From the IMG/VR virus record IMGVR_UViG_3300029037_000169: 64,000 nt of DNA, one strand, 5' to 3'. The position numbers and the translations under genes were made by a program. The DNA is from a virus. This document shows, piece after piece, positions 880-61,315 of the stretch; the stretch's first letter is position 1; the number at the start of each line of letters is the position of its first letter. A model generated the notes under the pieces. It saw only the letters and a list, made by a program, of their open reading frames with translations. It had not been told where the DNA came from and did no database searches.

Positions 880-1038
880 CCATAACTTATACTATCATAC
901 AGTATCAAACAATATCATATGCGCTCATGTTCAATACATTCGTGTGTTTTTAAACAGTCAACAAATATCATGTAATATCATATGATGTCATGTTTTTTGC
1001 GTGTAAATTCGCGTAGTTACACGCAACACGTTTTTATC

Positions 1039-2319
1039 ATGGAAATAAAGAGGAGCATAACATTCGAGATAGAGAAAAGAAGGAAGGAGGGGGAATTGAT
1101 TACCAAGAACGTCCCCATCAGGTGCGTGGTGACATTCAACCGGAACAGGATCACGCTCTCCACGGGGCACAGGATAGACGCTAATAAGTTCATCCCGGAG
1201 AAAGGTATCGTCAAGAACGGATGCTTCAACAAGGCCGGGGAAAGCTCGTCCGAGATAAATTCCGATCTTGACGATATACGTGCCACATTGCAAAATATAT
1301 TCCGCCAATACGAGAGAGAGGGCGAGATGCCTAGATCCAACGATATCAAGGAAAAGTTCAAGGTTGCGACAGGCCGGGCGAAGGAGGAAGAGAGGAAGCC
1401 GGTATCCCTGTTCGATATCTACAAGGAGTTTATCGATACGGTAGGGAGGCAGAACGCATGGACGAAGACATCGCACTACAAACATAACTCGATCATGCAC
1501 CTTCTGGAGGAGTTCAATCCACTGATCAAGTTCGATGACCTGTCGGAGGATACCTTGCAAGACTTCGTAGAGTTCTTAAGGGAATACAAAGGTATAAGGA
1601 ATACCACGTTGAACAAGTACCTGCACTTTATAAAGCAATTCCTTTTATGGGCCGACGACAAGGGATACAACACGAGAAAGGACTATCGAAGGTTCAGCCC
1701 AAGGCTTAAAGGGGCGAACTTCGATCTGAAGAAAGTCATATACTTGACATGGGAGGAACTGATGCGTATATATAATATGTATATAAAGGAAGGGACGTTA
1801 TCCACCGTCCGTGACGTTTTCTGCTTCTGCTGCTTCACCGGCCTCCGTTACTCCGACGTATATAACTTAAGGAAGACAGATATCATTAACGGGAAGATTG
1901 ACATCGTGACACAGAAGGACAGCGACAACATACAGATCGAGTTGAACAAGTACAGCAAATCAATACTTGATAAATACGAAGACATCAAGCTCAAGAACGG
2001 GAAGGCGCTGCCGGTCTTGTCCAATCAGAAATACAACATGCATCTAAAGGATCTCGGCAAGATGGCGGAGCTGGACTCCGAGATAACCGAGGTATGGTAC
2101 GAGGGCAACAAGCGAATACAGCAGACATTTCATAAATGGGAACGGCTTACTACCCATGTCGCCAGAAAGACATTCGTCGTCAACGCCCTTATGCTAGGCA
2201 TCCCCCCTCAAGTTATCATGAGATGGACAGGGCACAACGACCTCAAGGCCATGAAACCTTACACTCATATAGTGGATAAGCTGAAGGAGGACGAGATGAG
2301 CAAGTTCGATAAGATATAA
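1039..2319 (+). CDS. int: tyrosine-type site-specific integrase (ORF opens at 982; probable start 1039 MEIKRS)
   Basis: C-terminal catalytic signature HVARKTF...RWTGHNDLKAMKPYTHI (R..H..R..Y); position adjacent to attL. Confidence 0.85.
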   Translation: MEIKRSITFEIEKRRKEGELITKNVPIRCVVTFNRNRITLSTGHRIDANKFIPEKGIVKNGCFNKAGESSSEINSDLDDIRATLQNIFRQYEREGEMPRSNDIKEKFKVATGRAKEEERKPVSLFDIYKEFIDTVGRQNAWTKTSHYKHNSIMHLLEEFNPLIKFDDLSEDTLQDFVEFLREYKGIRNTTLNKYLHFIKQFLLWADDKGYNTRKDYRRFSPRLKGANFDLKKVIYLTWEELMRIYNMYIKEGTLSTVRDVFCFCCFTGLRYSDVYNLRKTDIINGKIDIVTQKDSDNIQIELNKYSKSILDKYEDIKLKNGKALPVLSNQKYNMHLKDLGKMAELDSEITEVWYEGNKRIQQTFHKWERLTTHVARKTFVVNALMLGIPPQVIMRWTGHNDLKAMKPYTHIVDKLKEDEMSKFDKI

Positions 2320-3469: not shown

Positions 3470-3904
3470 ATGATAAAAACAAAAGATACTTTAAACAAAA
3501 CAGGGCGGCAACCTATAAGCGGCGTAAAGACAATGACAACTAGAAAGCTATTTGAACTTTTCGTTAAGAACAACACAAAAGGCAGAGATGGTATTACTCC
3601 TAATGCCAATTTCAAAAGGACATACGGCGACATTTCATTTGAGCAAGCTTTCGAGAGCTATCTTACAAATGTCAACGATTTTCTTTCTTTAAAAAAGAAG
3701 ATAGACAAATTTGAATCCTTCTTGCTAAAAGAAGGTTGCCAAAGGATTCAGAGCAATATTTCGGAAAGTAGATATTACTACTACGGAGGAATAAAATATC
3801 GCTTCAGCAGCCACGTATATCCTACGGGTTCAATGACAGATAAGATAATGGGAGTGGTTGATTTAGCGGCTGATCCAGAACTTATAAATGATGTTATTTA
3901 TTAA
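3470..3904 (+). CDS. hypothetical protein
   Basis: ORF only. Confidence 0.35.
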   Translation: MIKTKDTLNKTGRQPISGVKTMTTRKLFELFVKNNTKGRDGITPNANFKRTYGDISFEQAFESYLTNVNDFLSLKKKIDKFESFLLKEGCQRIQSNISESRYYYYGGIKYRFSSHVYPTGSMTDKIMGVVDLAADPELINDVIY

Positions 3905-4256
3905 TATGAGAAATATATCTTTGACCCTTCCAGAATTCGCCTTCGTCGAAGGCTCCGGCCACGAAAAAGGCGGAGATCCCTTATATGGGAGAAATGTCAT
4001 CTTACACACCCGCTCCGCTAGCGTGATGGAGGTATTATTAAAAGATGATGTCGTATTGGAAGAAGACGTATTGTCATTCAACTTTTCGAATACCAACATG
4101 CTTGGAGAAAACGAACGAATGACAATAGCGTTGCATTACTCGGCGACACTTGATAAAATAGCCGATAGAGATATGATAATAAAAGATATTTTAAGACAGG
4201 CCGCAATATGGTATTGCGACTACTGTGACTGGGAGGACACCAAAGATGACAGATAG
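3888..4256 (+). CDS. hypothetical protein
   Basis: ORF overlapping previous stop. Confidence 0.3.
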   Translation: MMLFINMRNISLTLPEFAFVEGSGHEKGGDPLYGRNVILHTRSASVMEVLLKDDVVLEEDVLSFNFSNTNMLGENERMTIALHYSATLDKIADRDMIIKDILRQAAIWYCDYCDWEDTKDDR

Positions 4257-6288: not shown

Positions 6289-6346
6289 CCCCCACCCGTC
6301 TATGATTCGGGTTCTCGAAACCGTTGGAGGTTGTGGGGGGGAGCTA
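6289..6346 (+). repeat. structured ~55-bp direct repeat, copy 1 (CCCCCACCCGTCTATGATTCGGGTTCTCGAAACCGTTGGAGGTTGTGGGGGGGAGCTA)
   Basis: Near-identical copy at 7326..7379; outer 7-bp stem CCCCCAC/GTGGGGG; lies ~25 nt upstream of an ATG. Confidence 0.7.
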
Positions 6347-6372: not shown

Positions 6373-6570
6373 ATGCAGAAAAAAGTGGAAAGCAAAAGAA
6401 AGATCAGAGAAATGAAAGTATCTGAGAAACTATCCTTCCCTATAGAAGTGTTGGAGACGGTTAGAAATAACGTGTCTCTGTTAAACGCTAAGTATTATAG
6501 AGAGGGAAGGAAATGGTCTTCCGTATCAAACAAGGAAGAAGGGATCGTTTATGTCAGACGCTTAACATGA
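6373..6570 (+). CDS. hypothetical protein
   Basis: ORF with AAAGGA RBS-like sequence downstream of repeat copy 1. Confidence 0.35.
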   Translation: MQKKVESKRKIREMKVSEKLSFPIEVLETVRNNVSLLNAKYYREGRKWSSVSNKEEGIVYVRRLT

Positions 6571-6576
6571 CAGATC

Positions 6577-6966
6577 ATGGAAAGGGTATTCACCGAGTTA
6601 ACCGAGGAATGTGATTACACGGCCCAGTATTACGCCGTAGGGTTCGAGAAAAAAGAGATAGCCGAGAAAAAGTGCAGGTCGTTACATACGATCATAAACC
6701 AGCTAAGGACGGCTTTCGAGATACTAGGCGTAAGGAACGGTAGGGAGTTGGCCATAAAACTATGTGAGAGACTATGCGATATAAAAGCTAACGTGGATAT
6801 ACAGCAGATGGTTCATTCCGCCGTGGCGTGCGTATTGCTGCTTGTCCTTTGCGCCGACTCACATCTGGAAATGAGAAGGACAAGGCAAAGATGTCGGTCC
6901 GTGGCTAAAATAGAGATATCCTCTAGGGCTTTCAGGGGCTGTAGAGGAAAGAATATAACATTATAA
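6577..6966 (+). CDS. LuxR/GerE-like HTH regulator candidate
   Basis: FEKKEIAEKKCRSLHTIINQLRTAFEILGVRNGRELAIKL resembles LuxR C-terminal HTH. Confidence 0.4.
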   Translation: MERVFTELTEECDYTAQYYAVGFEKKEIAEKKCRSLHTIINQLRTAFEILGVRNGRELAIKLCERLCDIKANVDIQQMVHSAVACVLLLVLCADSHLEMRRTRQRCRSVAKIEISSRAFRGCRGKNITL

Positions 6967-7259: not shown

Positions 7260-7325
7260 CATCCCGGATGTCCCTAGGCCTTATCGCACCTGTGGCGCTA
7301 GGGGTGTCCGGACCTACTTATAAGG

Positions 7326-7379
7326 CCCCTACCCGTCTACGATTCGGGTTCGAAACCGTTGGAGGTTGTGGGGGAGCTA
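7326..7379 (+). repeat. structured ~55-bp direct repeat, copy 2
   Basis: CCCCTACCCGTCTACGATTCGGGTTCGAAACCGTTGGAGGTTGTGGGGGAGCTA; T/C change keeps stem via G-U; preceded by further inverted repeats (GGCCTTAT/ATAAGGCC, CCCTAG/CTAGGG). Confidence 0.7.
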
Positions 7380-7814: not shown

Positions 7815-8036
7815 AAGCTTAATATTTATGTTTAGCGCCGTAAAGTTAAGCAATCCCGCCAAGAGAGCCAAAGACTCGCAGGTTCCGGAGCAAGACCGGA
7901 GGCGGGACGAAACCATTTGCACTGTTTGACATGTTTATGTGTAATAAAGCTACCAAGACCTTAATATACCGCCGTGAGGCAGGAAGGAATATTAGTTTTT
8001 ACTTAAACTGTGCCGGGGTGGGATTCCCCGGCAAAC

Positions 8037-8111
8037 GCTCCCTTAGCTCAGTTGGTCGAGAGCATCCGGCTCATAACCGGGAGGTCGCTGGTTCAAGCCC
8101 GGCAGGGAGCA
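8037..8111 (+). tRNA. tRNA-Met (anticodon CAT; could be tRNA-Ile2 if lysidinylated), phage-encoded
   Basis: Acceptor GCTCCCT/AGGGAGC, D arm GCTCAGTTGGTCGAGAGC, anticodon loop CTCATAA, T arm GCTGG-TTCAAGC-CCGGC. Confidence 0.75.
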
Positions 8112-8180
8112 CGTTTCACCCCTAGAGGGTGCTTATTCATCTATTTTTAAGTCACAAATAGTTTTAGACATTGCAACGCA

Positions 8181-8207
8181 GGTCTCCGTCCGTGAGGATA
8201 TGAGGCC
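8181..8207 (+). ncRNA. hairpin with conserved 15-nt loop CGTCCGTGAGGATAT (stem GGTCTC/GAGGCC)
   Basis: Same loop with a different, compensating stem at 13752..13780. Confidence 0.45.
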
Positions 8208-8239
8208 TTTTCACATCGATCAATTTAAATCAACAACAT

Positions 8240-8470
8240 ATGATAAAGAGAAACCAAGCGTGGCTCTGGAAGATATTCCGGGCCACAAAGAGCGTGATCG
8301 TCTTCTCTTTTAGGATGATCTCCGCTACCATACTAGGACTAATATCAATAGTGTCAATATTTGAGTGGTACGATAAGCCATTCAATATTCACCTCTTGAT
8401 CTTATCGATCATATCAATCTTTATTGTGGTACACCAAATAGTTATAATGACTTATGAGTCAGAAAAATGA
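8240..8470 (+). CDS. small hydrophobic membrane protein
   Basis: Two predicted TM segments. Confidence 0.4.
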   Translation: MIKRNQAWLWKIFRATKSVIVFSFRMISATILGLISIVSIFEWYDKPFNIHLLILSIISIFIVVHQIVIMTYESEK

Positions 8471-8614: not shown

Positions 8615-9250
8615 ATGAAGACATTCGAGGAATTAAAGAAGGATCTGCTTGAACGGGCTAAAAAACATAACGCTTGTCAAGATGGATACAGGATGGGGTT
8701 AAACGCAAAAAGCAAACAAGATTTGCTGAAAGCAATAACCAATAATTGGTATTGGGTCTTGAGTGCATCCAAGATGATTGACGCAAATTACCTAGAAAAT
8801 AACTTTTCTGAAGAGGAATTAGCCGAAGCCGGTATTTACACAAGAAAAGAACACACCTCTAATGCTAAATCATTTGCTTGCGGCTCTGCCACGGTCGAGG
8901 CTTACGGCTCTGCCACGGTCGAGGCTTACGGCTCTGCCACGGTCGAGGCTTACGACTCTGCCACGGTCAAGGCTTACAACTCTGCCAAGGTCGAGGCTTA
9001 CGGCTCTGCCACGGTCAAGGCTTACGACTCTGCCACGGTCGAGGCTTACGACTCTGCCACGGTCGAGGCTTGCGACTCTGCCAAGGTCGAGGCTTACGGC
9101 TCTGCCACGGTCAAGGCTTACGATAACTCATATGTTGAGGATTGCACAGGGAACATAAATACAGTTTCCGATCATGGAATAATCAAAGATTACTACAATC
9201 ATAAGATATATATAAAGAAAGGAAAATTCGAGATTATTGAGATCGAATAA
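8615..9250 (+). CDS. protein with eleven tandem 8-aa repeats (G/D-S-A-T/K-V-E/K-A-Y)
   Basis: 24-bp DNA unit GGCTCTGCCACGGTCGAGGCTTAC x11 in frame; globular N-terminal 90 aa. Confidence 0.55.
   Translation: MKTFEELKKDLLERAKKHNACQDGYRMGLNAKSKQDLLKAITNNWYWVLSASKMIDANYLENNFSEEELAEAGIYTRKEHTSNAKSFACGSATVEAYGSATVEAYGSATVEAYDSATVKAYNSAKVEAYGSATVKAYDSATVEAYDSATVEACDSAKVEAYGSATVKAYDNSYVEDCTGNINTVSDHGIIKDYYNHKIYIKKGKFEIIEIE
8881..9144 (+). repeat. 24-bp tandem repeat array (x11) inside CDS 8615..9250
   Basis: Direct reading of sequence; all three frames open across it. Confidence 0.9.
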
Positions 9251-9257
9251 ATTCAAT

Positions 9258-9322
9258 GCCTTAGCTTATCGGTAGAGCGCCCCTAACATGGGGATGGCCG
9301 GGTTCGACTCCCGGAGGCCCAC
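9258..9322 (+). pseudogene. degenerate tRNA-like pseudogene
   Basis: Good D arm TAGCTTATCGGTAGAGCG and T arm CCGGGTTCGACTCCCGG, but 6-nt anticodon loop and only 4 bp of acceptor pairing. Confidence 0.45.
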
Positions 9323-9574
9323 AAATCAAGATATATGAGAGACATCTACATCAAAGACCCCGACGGAGATTACGAGTACGACGGGGAGGAAGACAACGAG
9401 GAATATGAGGAGAGCATGGAGGAACTTAGGTTCCTATGTGATTCATATAATTGGTAACATCCCGCCCTTACGAGGTGCAACCCCGACCCAGACCGGCAAC
9501 CGATATCCTAGACAAGTGGTAGGCCATGACGATATCATTGGCCCGGTGGAAAGGGACACGGTAATAAGGGCAGG

Positions 9575-9615
9575 GCGGCCGATGGTCTTAGTCCGGGTTC
9601 GACTCCCGGAGGCTG
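9575..9615 (+). pseudogene. tRNA 3'-fragment (T arm + partial acceptor)
   Basis: GATGGTCTTAGTCCGGGTTCGACTCCCGGAGGC repeats the 3' part of 9258..9322. Confidence 0.45.
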
Positions 9616-9637
9616 ACGAATTTAAATACAAGACAAC

Positions 9638-10776: not shown

Positions 10777-10872
10777 TCCACGCGTGCCGTGGCTACGGGA
10801 CGGTGGTTATCCCCGCCGTAGCGAATAACCGACCGCCCCGCTTATAAATCTAAAATTTAAAATCATAACATT

Positions 10873-13695: not shown

Positions 13696-13751
13696 GGATA
13701 TTAATATTAGAGTGTGTTTTTCATGGTATTAGATTTGGGTTAGAATGATTA

Positions 13752-13780
13752 TCCCCGCCGTCCGTGAGGATATGCGGGGA
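13752..13780 (+). ncRNA. hairpin with conserved loop CGTCCGTGAGGATAT (stem TCCCCGC/GCGGGGA)
   Basis: Covaries with 8181..8207. Confidence 0.45.
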
Positions 13781-13784
13781 TTTA

Positions 13785-13861
13785 GGTATCGTGGGTCTAA
13801 TGGTAAGACCACTCCGCCAAAAGACGGAGAGATGCAGATTCGAATCCTGCCGATACCACCA
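13785..13861 (+). tRNA. tRNA-like gene with encoded CCA and non-canonical 8-nt anticodon loop lacking U33
   Basis: Perfect 7-bp acceptor GGTATCG/CGATACC+A+CCA, D arm GGTC-TAATGGTAA-GACC, T loop TTCGAAT, but anticodon stem CTCCG/CGGAG encloses CCAAAAGA. Confidence 0.55.
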
Positions 13862-31027: not shown

Positions 31028-32054
31028 AAAACTCTGGTTTTAAAATTTTCTTAGCTAAATGCTTGCTATCGCTATCATATATCCAGCCCAGCCAACCGGC
31101 TAGACCTGCCTTGTATTCCGTTAAGGATATATTCGGGACTTTATTCAATCTAGCCGCCGCACGACATAGATTTTGCTTAGTCCTCTTCCTTATCCGTATA
31201 TGCTCCTTATAGAAAACGAACCCCACGAAATCTATACCACGGCCGCTTTTATCCGATCTTCTCTCAGCGATCTTAAATATCTGGTAATTCCCTTTCAGCT
31301 CCAACTTCAACACGGTCAACCTATCGATAAGCCACGGAAGCAATACGTTTCTCAAGAAACACTTATCATGATGGAAAAAAGTCATGTCATCCGCATATCT
31401 GATATAATGCTTTATATCTATAATCTCCTTTATCTCGTGATCCAGATAGGCGAGATAAAGATTCGCAAGATATTGGCTAAGATAATTCCCGATCGGAACG
31501 CCGGGAGCGGAATCGATGATCTCATCCAACAACATAAGCAAGCGATCGTCCTTGATCTTCTTCCGAGCTATGCCTTTCAACACTTCATGGTCTATTGACG
31601 GATAGAATTTGCGGATATCAACCTTGAGGCAATAGGCGGATTCACGATCGGACAAAGCCCGTCTTGTCCTTTTATACGCCTCCGTTATCCCTCTTCCCTT
31701 GATACATGATGTCGTGTCAGAAGTGAATATGGAAACCCATATAGGTTCCATGACGTTCATTATAGCATGATGCAATATCCTGTCCGGGTAATAAGGAAGC
31801 TTGAATATGACCCTTTCTTTAGGCTCATAGATGATATCAGTCCGGTACTTGGAAGTCTTGAACGTGCCATCCTGCAAAGACTTTAGCAAACGGCTGAGAT
31901 TACCTTCTTTGTCCTTGTCAAACAACCTTATGCCGTAGGAATCCTTCTTCCCCCTCCGAGCCTTGATGTCTGCCAGTATCAAGTTATCCATATTCGCTAT
32001 CTTATCAAATAAATTTCCTATTCTCTTCATTGTCATCAATTTGCTTTTTATCAT
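30993..32054 (-). CDS. diversity-generating retroelement (DGR) reverse transcriptase
   Basis: YADD catalytic box (IRYADDMTFF); DGR-specific IGNYLSQ in place of QGxxxSP; ~350 aa; adjacent TR. Confidence 0.85.
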   Translation of the reverse strand: MIKSKLMTMKRIGNLFDKIANMDNLILADIKARRGKKDSYGIRLFDKDKEGNLSRLLKSLQDGTFKTSKYRTDIIYEPKERVIFKLPYYPDRILHHAIMNVMEPIWVSIFTSDTTSCIKGRGITEAYKRTRRALSDRESAYCLKVDIRKFYPSIDHEVLKGIARKKIKDDRLLMLLDEIIDSAPGVPIGNYLSQYLANLYLAYLDHEIKEIIDIKHYIRYADDMTFFHHDKCFLRNVLLPWLIDRLTVLKLELKGNYQIFKIAERRSDKSGRGIDFVGFVFYKEHIRIRKRTKQNLCRAAARLNKVPNISLTEYKAGLAGWLGWIYDSDSKHLAKKILKPEFYEAIMERHNAA

Positions 32055-32161
32055 AGGGAGTCTTCGGTTCCCCTACCAACACCCTTTATATGGGGAGACT
32101 TTTTTCGCCAAGAGGCGAGGCCACCATCCCTGTTTGTTCCCTAAATATCTTTCCCCTTTCT

Positions 32162-60676: not shown

Positions 60677-60918
60677 ATTTTCGTAACTTTAAGTTACGCA
60701 CCTGTCCCGCAAATATAATGAATAATATACATGACGGCTACACTGTATCCATAAAATATGTTATTGATCATAATTGGGAGTTGAGAAGGAAAAACGTTAT
60801 ATTTGTCACGATGGAGAATTAAGACATCAAAAATCCTATAAAAAAACGCCTTTTACGTGTATTTTTACGTGTAACAACAAAAATAGCCTTGACAATCAGT
60901 AAATTACCAAGGCTATTG

Positions 60919-60933
60919 TGGAGATGGAGAGAT
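60919..60933. repeat. right prophage junction (att core) = 3' terminal 15 nt of ssrA
   Basis: Identical to 865..879. Confidence 0.65.
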
Positions 60934-61315
60934 TCGAACTCTCGTCCAAACGAGGAATTAATTTGCTTTCTACATGTTTATCTTCGCCTTCATTGTCGGG
61001 GAAGAGCAAGACCGAAGCCACCCACTCATCCCTTATCCTCTAAAGTTTCGCCTGAGACCCGAGGCTTATCTCAAACTATCTCCGATATTGCTGCACCACC
61101 TGATCGGAACGCTTCGGAGCCACAGCATCCGGGTGATGTCACGTCCCCGCAACTTTTGCAGGGATTAAGCTTGAATCTACTATACTTCGATTAAGCAGCG
61201 AGAGCGTAATTATTTTCGCCAGTTAATTGTTCGTTGTCTGAGATTTAAGTGCAAGCCAACCACGCACTACATGCTTACAAACCACTTCTACCCGCTGTCA
61301 AAACCGGTCATCCCC
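60919..61315 (-). ncRNA. ssrA: tmRNA (ssrA) with tag peptide GENNYALAA
   Basis: 5' GGGGATGACCGGTTTTGACAGCGGG; tag ORF GGCGAAAATAATTACGCTCTCGCTGCTTAA (61191..61220, minus); 3' tRNA-like GAGAGTTCGAATCTCTCCATCTCCA. Confidence 0.85.

Follow-up and report, generated by a model that had tools for sequence, protein, structure and literature searches.

To our knowledge, the Bacteroidales lack Hfq and ProQ, and we know of no general small-RNA chaperone comparable to Hfq in this order. Glycan import by gut Bacteroides is governed by the FopS small RNAs. This family comprises 14 paralogous RNAs of 65-70 nt in B. thetaiotaomicron, which bind RbpB and repress the translation of susC and SusC-type transporters through a 5' seed. 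Their hairpins were described as Rho-independent terminators, and the FopS sequence was noted by the same authors in one Caudovirales phage (Ruettiger et al. 2025, PMC11697453). GibS begins with the same single-stranded 5' seed, which is followed by two hairpins (Ryan et al. 2020, PMC7366714).

Here we analysed a 64,000-nt stretch of viral DNA (the window) in which two hairpins carry one and the same 15-nt top on different stems. Our overall reading, to which a probability of about 0.6 was assigned, is that both are sense-strand stem-loops of one family, hairpin 2 being part of a FopS homologue and hairpin 1 an orphan hairpin of the same type.

Two hairpins with a common top

The window represents a temperate Bacteroides phage, whose region from erf to rusA is 91% identical to that of B. 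fragilis phage BF1-TP2. The exact 15-mer CGTCCGTGAGGATAT was found twice on the + strand, at 8187-8201 and 13759-13773, and no third exact copy is present. The two copies and their neighbours are as follows:

8037..8112, + strand: tRNA-Met(CAT), the upstream unit of hairpin 1, ending 67 nt before the hairpin
8117..8131, + strand: small hairpin CACCCCUAGAGGGUG directly after tRNA-Met, terminator-like by scan, with a stem that varies in relatives
8180..8208, + strand: hairpin 1 (copy 1), stem AGGUCUC/GAGGCCU of 7 bp with one U.G, top C-GUCC-GUGA-GGAU-AU at 8187-8201
8209..8211, + strand: short U-tract after hairpin 1 (UUUU if the paired U8208 is counted), then CAC
13714..13750, + strand: FopS/GibS-type single-stranded 5' region, with the seed GUGUUUUUCAUGGUAUUAGAUUU at 13714-13736 and then a 14-nt spacer
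13751..13781, + strand: hairpin 2 (copy 2), outer stem AUCCCCGC/GCGGGGAU of 8 bp, same top at 13759-13773
13785..13861, + strand: tRNA-like gene beginning 3 nt after hairpin 2, its anticodon loop 8 nt long (CCAAAAGA)

The first-pass annotation had described one 15-mer held between two different pairs of complementary arms, and this description holds, with exactly two copies in the window. It placed both sites correctly apart from offsets of one base: the DNA arms are AGGTCTC (8180-8186) and GAGGCCT (8202-8208) for hairpin 1, forming 7 bp including one T.G, and ATCCCCGC (13751-13758) and GCGGGGAT (13774-13781) for hairpin 2, forming 8 bp. Both hairpins adjoin tRNA or tRNA-like genes, as it had noted, and this neighbourhood recurs in relatives, but the spacings are 67 nt and 3 nt rather than 70 and 5. 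In a search of the window with a covariance model built from relatives, hairpin 2 scored 55 bits and hairpin 1 47.8 bits; no third site was detected, the next match reaching 11 bits. The recurrence of the 5' arm motif was real as well, the second occurrence of TTATCCCCGCCGT lying at 10807-10819 (one base from the 10808 given earlier), inside a hairpin at 10794-10824. However, this 13-mer has no support as part of the hairpin motif, and a link to the hairpin at 10794-10824, which had been mentioned alongside, is not supported: that hairpin shares 13 nt of one arm, lacks the top and gave no covariance-model match. The 13-mer at 10807 is conserved in close (near-identical) relatives only.

The 15 nt had been taken for an open loop, but in the predicted RNA fold they contain an inner helix capped by a GNRA tetraloop. 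From 5' to 3', a C bulge leads into a 4-bp helix GUCC/GGAU that closes around a GUGA tetraloop, and an AU bulge follows, with the inner pairs G.U, U-A, C-G and C-G, so that outer and inner helices total 11-12 bp. The minimum-energy structure coincided with the centroid structure at both sites (-14.8 kcal/mol for hairpin 1 and -20.0 kcal/mol for hairpin 2), and RNAalifold independently gave the same fold from the alignment of relatives.

Covariation among relatives and the strand that folds

A search of related phages for the 15-mer between inverted repeats had been suggested, and a scan of IMG/VR identified the exact 15-mer in at least 119 viral contigs. Among the matches listed, 69 of 119 had flanks with at least 6 contiguous pairs, far above the chance level of about 0.003 per site, and allowing a shift of 1 nt added further fitting flanks. 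Matches without complementary flanks resembled coding-sequence matches, and their number was close to the chance expectation. When a 17-mer version was searched in a 596-Gb collection of genomes, 57 matches were obtained against about 69 expected by chance, and only about 16 of them had hairpin flanks. The latter came mostly from Bacteroidales (Parabacteroides, Prevotella, Muribaculaceae, Porphyromonadaceae and Bacteroides), along with a few other or unclassified bins. Within the isolate phage database, the elements were present in a single record, BF1-TP2. In this sole sequenced isolate the hairpin region is mis-annotated or unannotated, a "hypothetical protein" gp8 overlapping the copy 2 hairpin and its tRNA-like gene and copy 1 having no annotation.

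The covariance model, trained on 13 variants and then run over 41 loci, returned 49 matches with 47 distinct sequences and about 25 different lower stems. In the resulting 47-sequence alignment, which was fitted to the model whereas the flank counts (69/119) are independent of it, 92.8% of the cells in paired columns were paired, compared with 70.8% after shuffling and 28-50% when the partner column was slid. Two-sided changes occurred in all 8/8 outer pairs. Several relatives have two hairpin copies and many phages have one. An all-against-all BLAST of the ORFs of 34 loci identified no co-occurring partner gene, and the genes in common (integrase, cI-like repressor, DUF4494, replication protein and VRR-NUC) were ordinary early-region genes. 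The proposed selection for a hairpin is thus borne out by the covarying stems and the conserved top in relatives. Judged from these sequence comparisons, both hairpins are real, selected RNA structures in which a conserved top sits on a freely varying lower stem.

Changes within the top followed a narrow pattern. Only the tetraloops GUGA, GGGA and GCGA co-occurred with an outer stem, while the matches to the GCAA, GCCA, GAUA and GGCA loop variants were without hairpin context. Double variants of the loop-closing pair were scored as well (n = 68): all nine of the nine whose outer stem reached 6 bp or more were U-A, on three different outer stems, and none of the 55 matches with other base combinations had an outer stem. 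The G2.U13 wobble was near-invariant in recognisable copies, being replaced rarely by G-C (L385 and L365) or A-U (one lineage), and no unpaired change was found there. A sub-class carries G...G in place of C...U at the ends of the 15-mer. In the outer core pairs, G.U outnumbered A.C by 17 to 4, and the inner G.U was present in 47/47 sequences, indicating that it is the sense strand that folds, as RNA and not as a DNA cruciform. The earlier alternative of an "RNA or DNA hairpin" is therefore retained for sense-strand RNA and dropped for DNA. The near-invariance of the top implies, as far as conservation can tell, some factor that recognises it.

Several other kinds of element were considered for the hairpins. 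A K-turn or loop-E type motif was rejected on inspection, the internal loop having no tandem G.A pairs, as was a Shine-Dalgarno mimic pairing with the 16S 3' end, for which the complementarity is just 4 nt. CRISPR-repeat mimics, attC sites and IS200-type DNA hairpins show the opposite pattern of conservation (here the top is kept and the stems are free), and the strand asymmetry is also contrary to them. For an RNase III site the helix is of insufficient length. Mimicry of a long tRNA variable arm was considered for two matches: the exact 15-mer forms the long variable arm of an archaeal tRNA (L127, 4757-4842), and a one-loop variant, CGUCCGCAAGGAUAU, that of a jumbo-phage tRNA-Ser (L216, 6902-6986). 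These are single cases within the number of matches expected by chance and are probably coincidental, although the top resembles a class II variable arm in shape. The hairpins themselves have no T-loop and were called neither by ARAGORN nor by the Rfam tRNA model; they are neighbours of tRNA or tRNA-like genes, not members.

Relation to the FopS and GibS small RNAs

At gathering thresholds, Rfam returned nothing at either hairpin. In a lenient scan, positions 13714-13791 aligned end to end with BTncRNA_FopS RF04319 (34.2 bits) and GibS RF04182 (25.3 bits), both scores lying below the respective gathering scores of 56 and 115 bits; the relative L002 reached 37.3 bits with RF04319. The lenient scan of 8020-8320 gave tRNA only and no match for hairpin 1, and the other hairpin classes were likewise without a match. 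The seed GUGUUUUUCAUGGUAUUAGAUUU equals the FopS consensus over 23/23 nt, and in the Rfam alignments hairpin 2 coincides with the terminator hairpin of FopS and with the first hairpin of GibS. With RF04182, only R1 and the first hairpin match, and the remainder falls on the tRNA-like gene. The likeness to GibS accordingly consists of the same R1 seed and a first hairpin of the same layout (Rfam consensus GuAc-cu-GCUU-GuGAu-AAGU-aA-gUaC), that is, an outer stem, a small internal loop, a G.U-closed inner helix and a GUGA-type loop. In contrast, GibS is 145 nt long and has a second hairpin, an R2 seed, its own terminator and a PM2 promoter, all of which are absent here.

To place the top within the family, loci with the exact 23-nt seed were collected, and metagenomes yielded at least 120 contigs of canonical FopS architecture, representing 103 unique loci. 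Among the matches listed, 90 of the 103 unique FopS-seed loci carried a hairpin whose top fits GUC(Y)-GNGA(N)-(R)GAY. The canonical FopS terminators of L458 and L474 read GGCU-GUCCGUGAGGAU-AGCC or -GGCC, followed by a U-tail, and share the 12-nt core GUCCGUGAGGAU with the window. Across 0.94 Mb of host DNA, three forms of the top motif occurred 29, 16 and 34 times in FopS loci compared with 0, 1 and 1 times elsewhere. By these counts, the top is a signature of the FopS family and not general to Bacteroides terminators. Our verdict, based on alignments and motif counts, is that the shared top represents the phage form of the FopS-terminal and first GibS hairpin, in other words a phage variant of a known small-RNA family.

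Copy 2 resembles FopS in its identical seed, its spacer and its single hairpin with the common core, and its predicted length of about 71 nt is close to the 65-70 nt of FopS. It differs from FopS in its score below gathering level, in having no U-tail, in its fusion to a tRNA-like gene that starts 3 nt downstream and in its location within a temperate phage's early region. It also lacks the canonical sigma-ABfr promoter box TAnnTTTG, which was present 3-6 nt before +1 in 93 of the 103 sampled FopS loci; TAATATTA stands at the corresponding place. FopS hairpins are continuous helices with U-tails, whereas in the phage form a C/AU internal loop interrupts the helix, the lower stem is free and a U-tail is often absent. 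What is unusual in the phage variant is hence its bulged top, its free lower stem, the missing promoter box and U-tail, the tRNA-like fusion and the existence of orphan copies.

The tail of copy 2 is UUA, after which the tRNA-like gene begins. This 3-nt gap leaves no space for a promoter, so transcription must traverse hairpin 2, and as there is no U-tail either, copy 2 and the tRNA-like gene are probably co-transcribed. We propose that positions 13714-13784 constitute a phage-borne FopS homologue, a single-stranded seed followed by a hairpin, and that they belong, probably, to one transcript with the tRNA-like gene. Cleavage by RNase P at 13784/13785, the 5' end of the tRNA-like gene, would then free a small RNA of about 71 nt with the hairpin at its 3' end. 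If it works as FopS does, the phage seed would base-pair around the start codons of host mRNAs for SusC-type transporters. Regulatory RNAs joined to a tRNA or tRNA-like structure, with an end set by tRNA-processing enzymes, are exemplified by the E. coli 3'ETS-leuZ trailer RNA, the vertebrate MALAT1-mascRNA and the tRNA-miRNA transcripts of MHV68. The phage elements are similar in arrangement alone, copy 2 lying upstream of a tRNA-like gene and copy 1 in a tRNA trailer; there is no sequence relation, and the processing of the phage RNAs is only predicted.

The tRNA-like gene at 13785-13861 was assigned the anticodon "aaaa" by ARAGORN and scored 47.5 bits with the Rfam tRNA model; with the skipping-rope RNA model it scored 30.2 bits, below the threshold of 36.7. 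It could be a putative frameshift suppressor or a decoy. In seed-type relatives, the seed precedes the hairpin by about 27-38 nt, and a tRNA-like T-loop follows it in about 45 of 50 cases. The tRNA-like gene begins 2-7 nt past the hairpin in most of them and belongs to several unrelated forms, such that the upstream unit moves together with the hairpin while the downstream cargo differs among relatives. Other odd tRNA-like genes were observed directly after hairpin 2 in L002 (3293-3370), L024 (7269-7384) and L120, which is BF1-TP2 (about 3827-3945). The cargo of one relative consists of an acceptor stem and a T-arm with a long hairpin replacing the D and anticodon arms, and that of another is a Leu-like tRNA with an insert of about 30 nt.

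Linkage to tRNAs was also encountered among metagenomic FopS loci. Among the matches listed, the seed of 5 of the 103 FopS loci begins about 11 nt beyond the 3' end of a tRNA, with no promoter box, so tRNA-linked FopS units exist elsewhere. In L463, L484, L498 and L513, where the seeds lie about 11 nt past the tRNA 3' end and the TAnnTTTG box is missing, the FopS units seem to derive from tRNA trailers, which is not an arrangement described in PMC11697453 or PMC7366714.

Hairpin 1 lies in a different setting, and neither a FopS seed upstream nor an Rfam match was found for it. Between the small hairpin that follows tRNA-Met and hairpin 1 there is an A/U-rich spacer (8132-8179), which differs among relatives and is probably single-stranded. 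The ORF downstream of hairpin 1 begins at 8240, and the following ORF varies in relatives. For relatives of the hairpin 1 type, a tRNA-Met or tRNA-like T-loop was located about 76-91 nt upstream in about 29 of 31, the stem varied between GAGGCC and GAGACC, and the tails were UUUCACAU, UUCUUCCG and UUUUCCCG. The U-tract at 8209..8211 is possibly a weak intrinsic-terminator tail. A simple terminator scan called neither hairpin, and tails among relatives range from 7 U to none; a sigma-70 promoter scan of the window was not informative in Bacteroides. Hairpin 1 is best read as the 3' hairpin of a tRNA trailer RNA, for which it would most likely serve as 3' end, terminator or stabiliser.

Further classes without a seed include L015, in which the hairpin lies between two ORFs, with a stop codon 38 nt upstream and an ATG 35 nt downstream, and L124 and L131, in which it lies between two tRNAs. 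These and the other non-seed classes gave no FopS match with lenient Rfam. A pure "FopS" reading thus does not cover all copies. Because copy 1 and several classes lack the seed and an Rfam match, and L015 is intercistronic, the hairpin is more widespread than the FopS small RNA, and this is the main reason to regard the top as recognised in its own right.

Alternative explanations and possible meaning

An ordinary intrinsic terminator or stability hairpin, whose top is shared through ancestry or recombination and is not specifically recognised, would account for the clear U-tails of L007, L136, L147, L172 and L174, for the intrinsic stability of C(GNRA)G tops and for the description of FopS hairpins as Rho-independent terminators (PMC11697453). 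We consider it improbable, given that the top is invariant on about 25 unrelated lower stems in several Bacteroidales families whose surroundings have diverged, that it varies only in structure-preserving ways, and that it is all but confined to FopS loci in the 0.94 Mb of host DNA (at most one occurrence elsewhere per motif form). Many copies, moreover, are without a U-tail and need read-through to express a tRNA-like gene 3 nt downstream. The hairpins might instead punctuate RNA processing, an endonuclease or a stalled 3' exonuclease cutting the early transcript at or near them, with the similarity to FopS being a matter of ancestry only. Such a role, reminiscent of T7 RNase III sites and mitochondrial tRNA punctuation, would suit a hairpin that in every case is intergenic and on the sense strand, lying 12-37 nt ahead of an ATG, 2-7 nt (in most) before a tRNA-like gene, between tRNAs as in L124 and L131, or between a stop codon and the next start as in the L015 class. 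It would also suit a phage with several tRNA-like pieces nearby and a helix of 11-12 bp resembling an acceptor-plus-T minihelix. The helix is, however, too short for classical RNase III, and with the T-loop and CCA end absent it is not a normal substrate of RNase P or RNase Z. We regard processing punctuation as rather unlikely on its own terms, and it overlaps with the best explanation instead of excluding it, a 3'-end-forming hairpin belonging to both.

If the hairpin were recognised in nascent RNA by a transcription factor of the phage or the host, in the manner of the lambda nut/boxB or HK022 put sites, RNA polymerase would be modified so as to read through early-operon terminators. The resemblance to lambda boxB is evident in a small hairpin with a GNRA-like loop and conserved top that occurs twice on one strand of a lambdoid-like temperate phage, at sites in the early region spaced by about 5.5 kb. 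Several relatives are two-copy too, the neighbouring genes are erf, a ninB-like DUF1367, rusA and VRR-NUC, and the ORF at 6577-6966 weakly matches Phage_antitermQ (16.9 bits, below the cut-off of 26). Yet neither a boxA-like conserved element beside the hairpins nor a small arginine-rich ORF or N-like protein was found here, and the stems of the two window copies differ, unlike those of nutL and nutR. Many phages have a single copy, the matched stretch of the Q-like ORF looks to us like a generic LuxR-type helix-turn-helix, and the same top occurs in host FopS small-RNA terminators with U-tails, which end transcripts. Antitermination is therefore given only a small chance. A cruciform or single-strand hairpin acting at the DNA level in recombination, replication or integration, for example as a recombinase or nuclease site near tRNA genes, is the least probable of these explanations and very unlikely. 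It draws on the proximity of tRNA and tRNA-like genes, a kind of gene often targeted for integration, on the phage integrase at 981-2316 and on the identity of the hairpin 1 outer stem with the acceptor stem of a tRNA-like gene of relatives (AGGTCT/AGGCCT). But a G.T on the sense strand is a C.A mismatch on the other, so the ratio of 17 to 4 and the invariant inner G.T disfavour a cruciform; FopS-family small RNAs that have been mapped by experiment contain the same top, the copies flank no mobile unit, and direct repeats and terminal structure are absent.

Under the preferred reading, a sense-strand family of stem-loops related to FopS, the phage-borne exact seed suggests that temperate phages can tap FopS control, perhaps altering surface transporters in lysogeny or infection. 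The tRNA-like fusion likewise suggests a terminator-free route to small-RNA ends. The wider conservation of the top than of the seed points to a hitherto unrecognised recognition element in Bacteroidales RNA biology. As a tentative and, in our estimation, doubtful extension, the invariant top could be a dedicated handle for an RNA-binding protein or nuclease of Bacteroidales, which phages reuse as a portable module in two ways. One would be a phage mimic of FopS that silences SusC-type outer-membrane transporters, possible phage receptors; the other would be its use on transcripts linked to tRNAs, with ends generated by tRNA-processing enzymes instead of terminators.

Additional features of the window were recorded. 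The ORF at 981-2316 (+) encodes a tyrosine-integrase, and a tmRNA gene with the tag GENNYALAA lies at 60916-61315 (-; 138.8 bits), at the opposite end of the window. This placement of the two suggests a prophage of about 60 kb within the window, integrated beside ssrA. Two tRNA-like pieces, at about 9257-9323 and at 9583-9617 (+), both contain the T-arm CCGGGTTCGACTCCCGGAGGC, and ARAGORN called neither of them in the window. Relatives' version of the former piece was called as a tRNA with a 6-nt anticodon loop, and its version in L004 has the acceptor arms AGGTCT/AGGCCT, identical to the outer stem of hairpin 1. The antitermination-Q-like ORF at 6577-6966 (+), a sub-threshold match, encodes 129 aa. 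A near-identical repeat of about 50 nt, at 6289-6339 and 7326-7374 (+), forms a hairpin CCCCCACCCG...GGTTGTGGGGG; one copy precedes the ORF at 6373, and the other lies inside or before the ORF at 7268. At 32037-32122 (-), a match to the RT-17 RNA RF03020 (41.7 bits, narrowly over its gathering score, 40.4) was detected, and this reverse-transcriptase-associated motif may mark a diversity-generating retroelement in the phage. Finally, the ORF at 8615-9250 encodes a protein of 211 aa with a weak match to the T4 gp5 C-terminal domain only, and within it, at 8828-9187 (+), a 24-nt unit is repeated 11 times in tandem and encodes the 8-residue repeat xAYGSATV.
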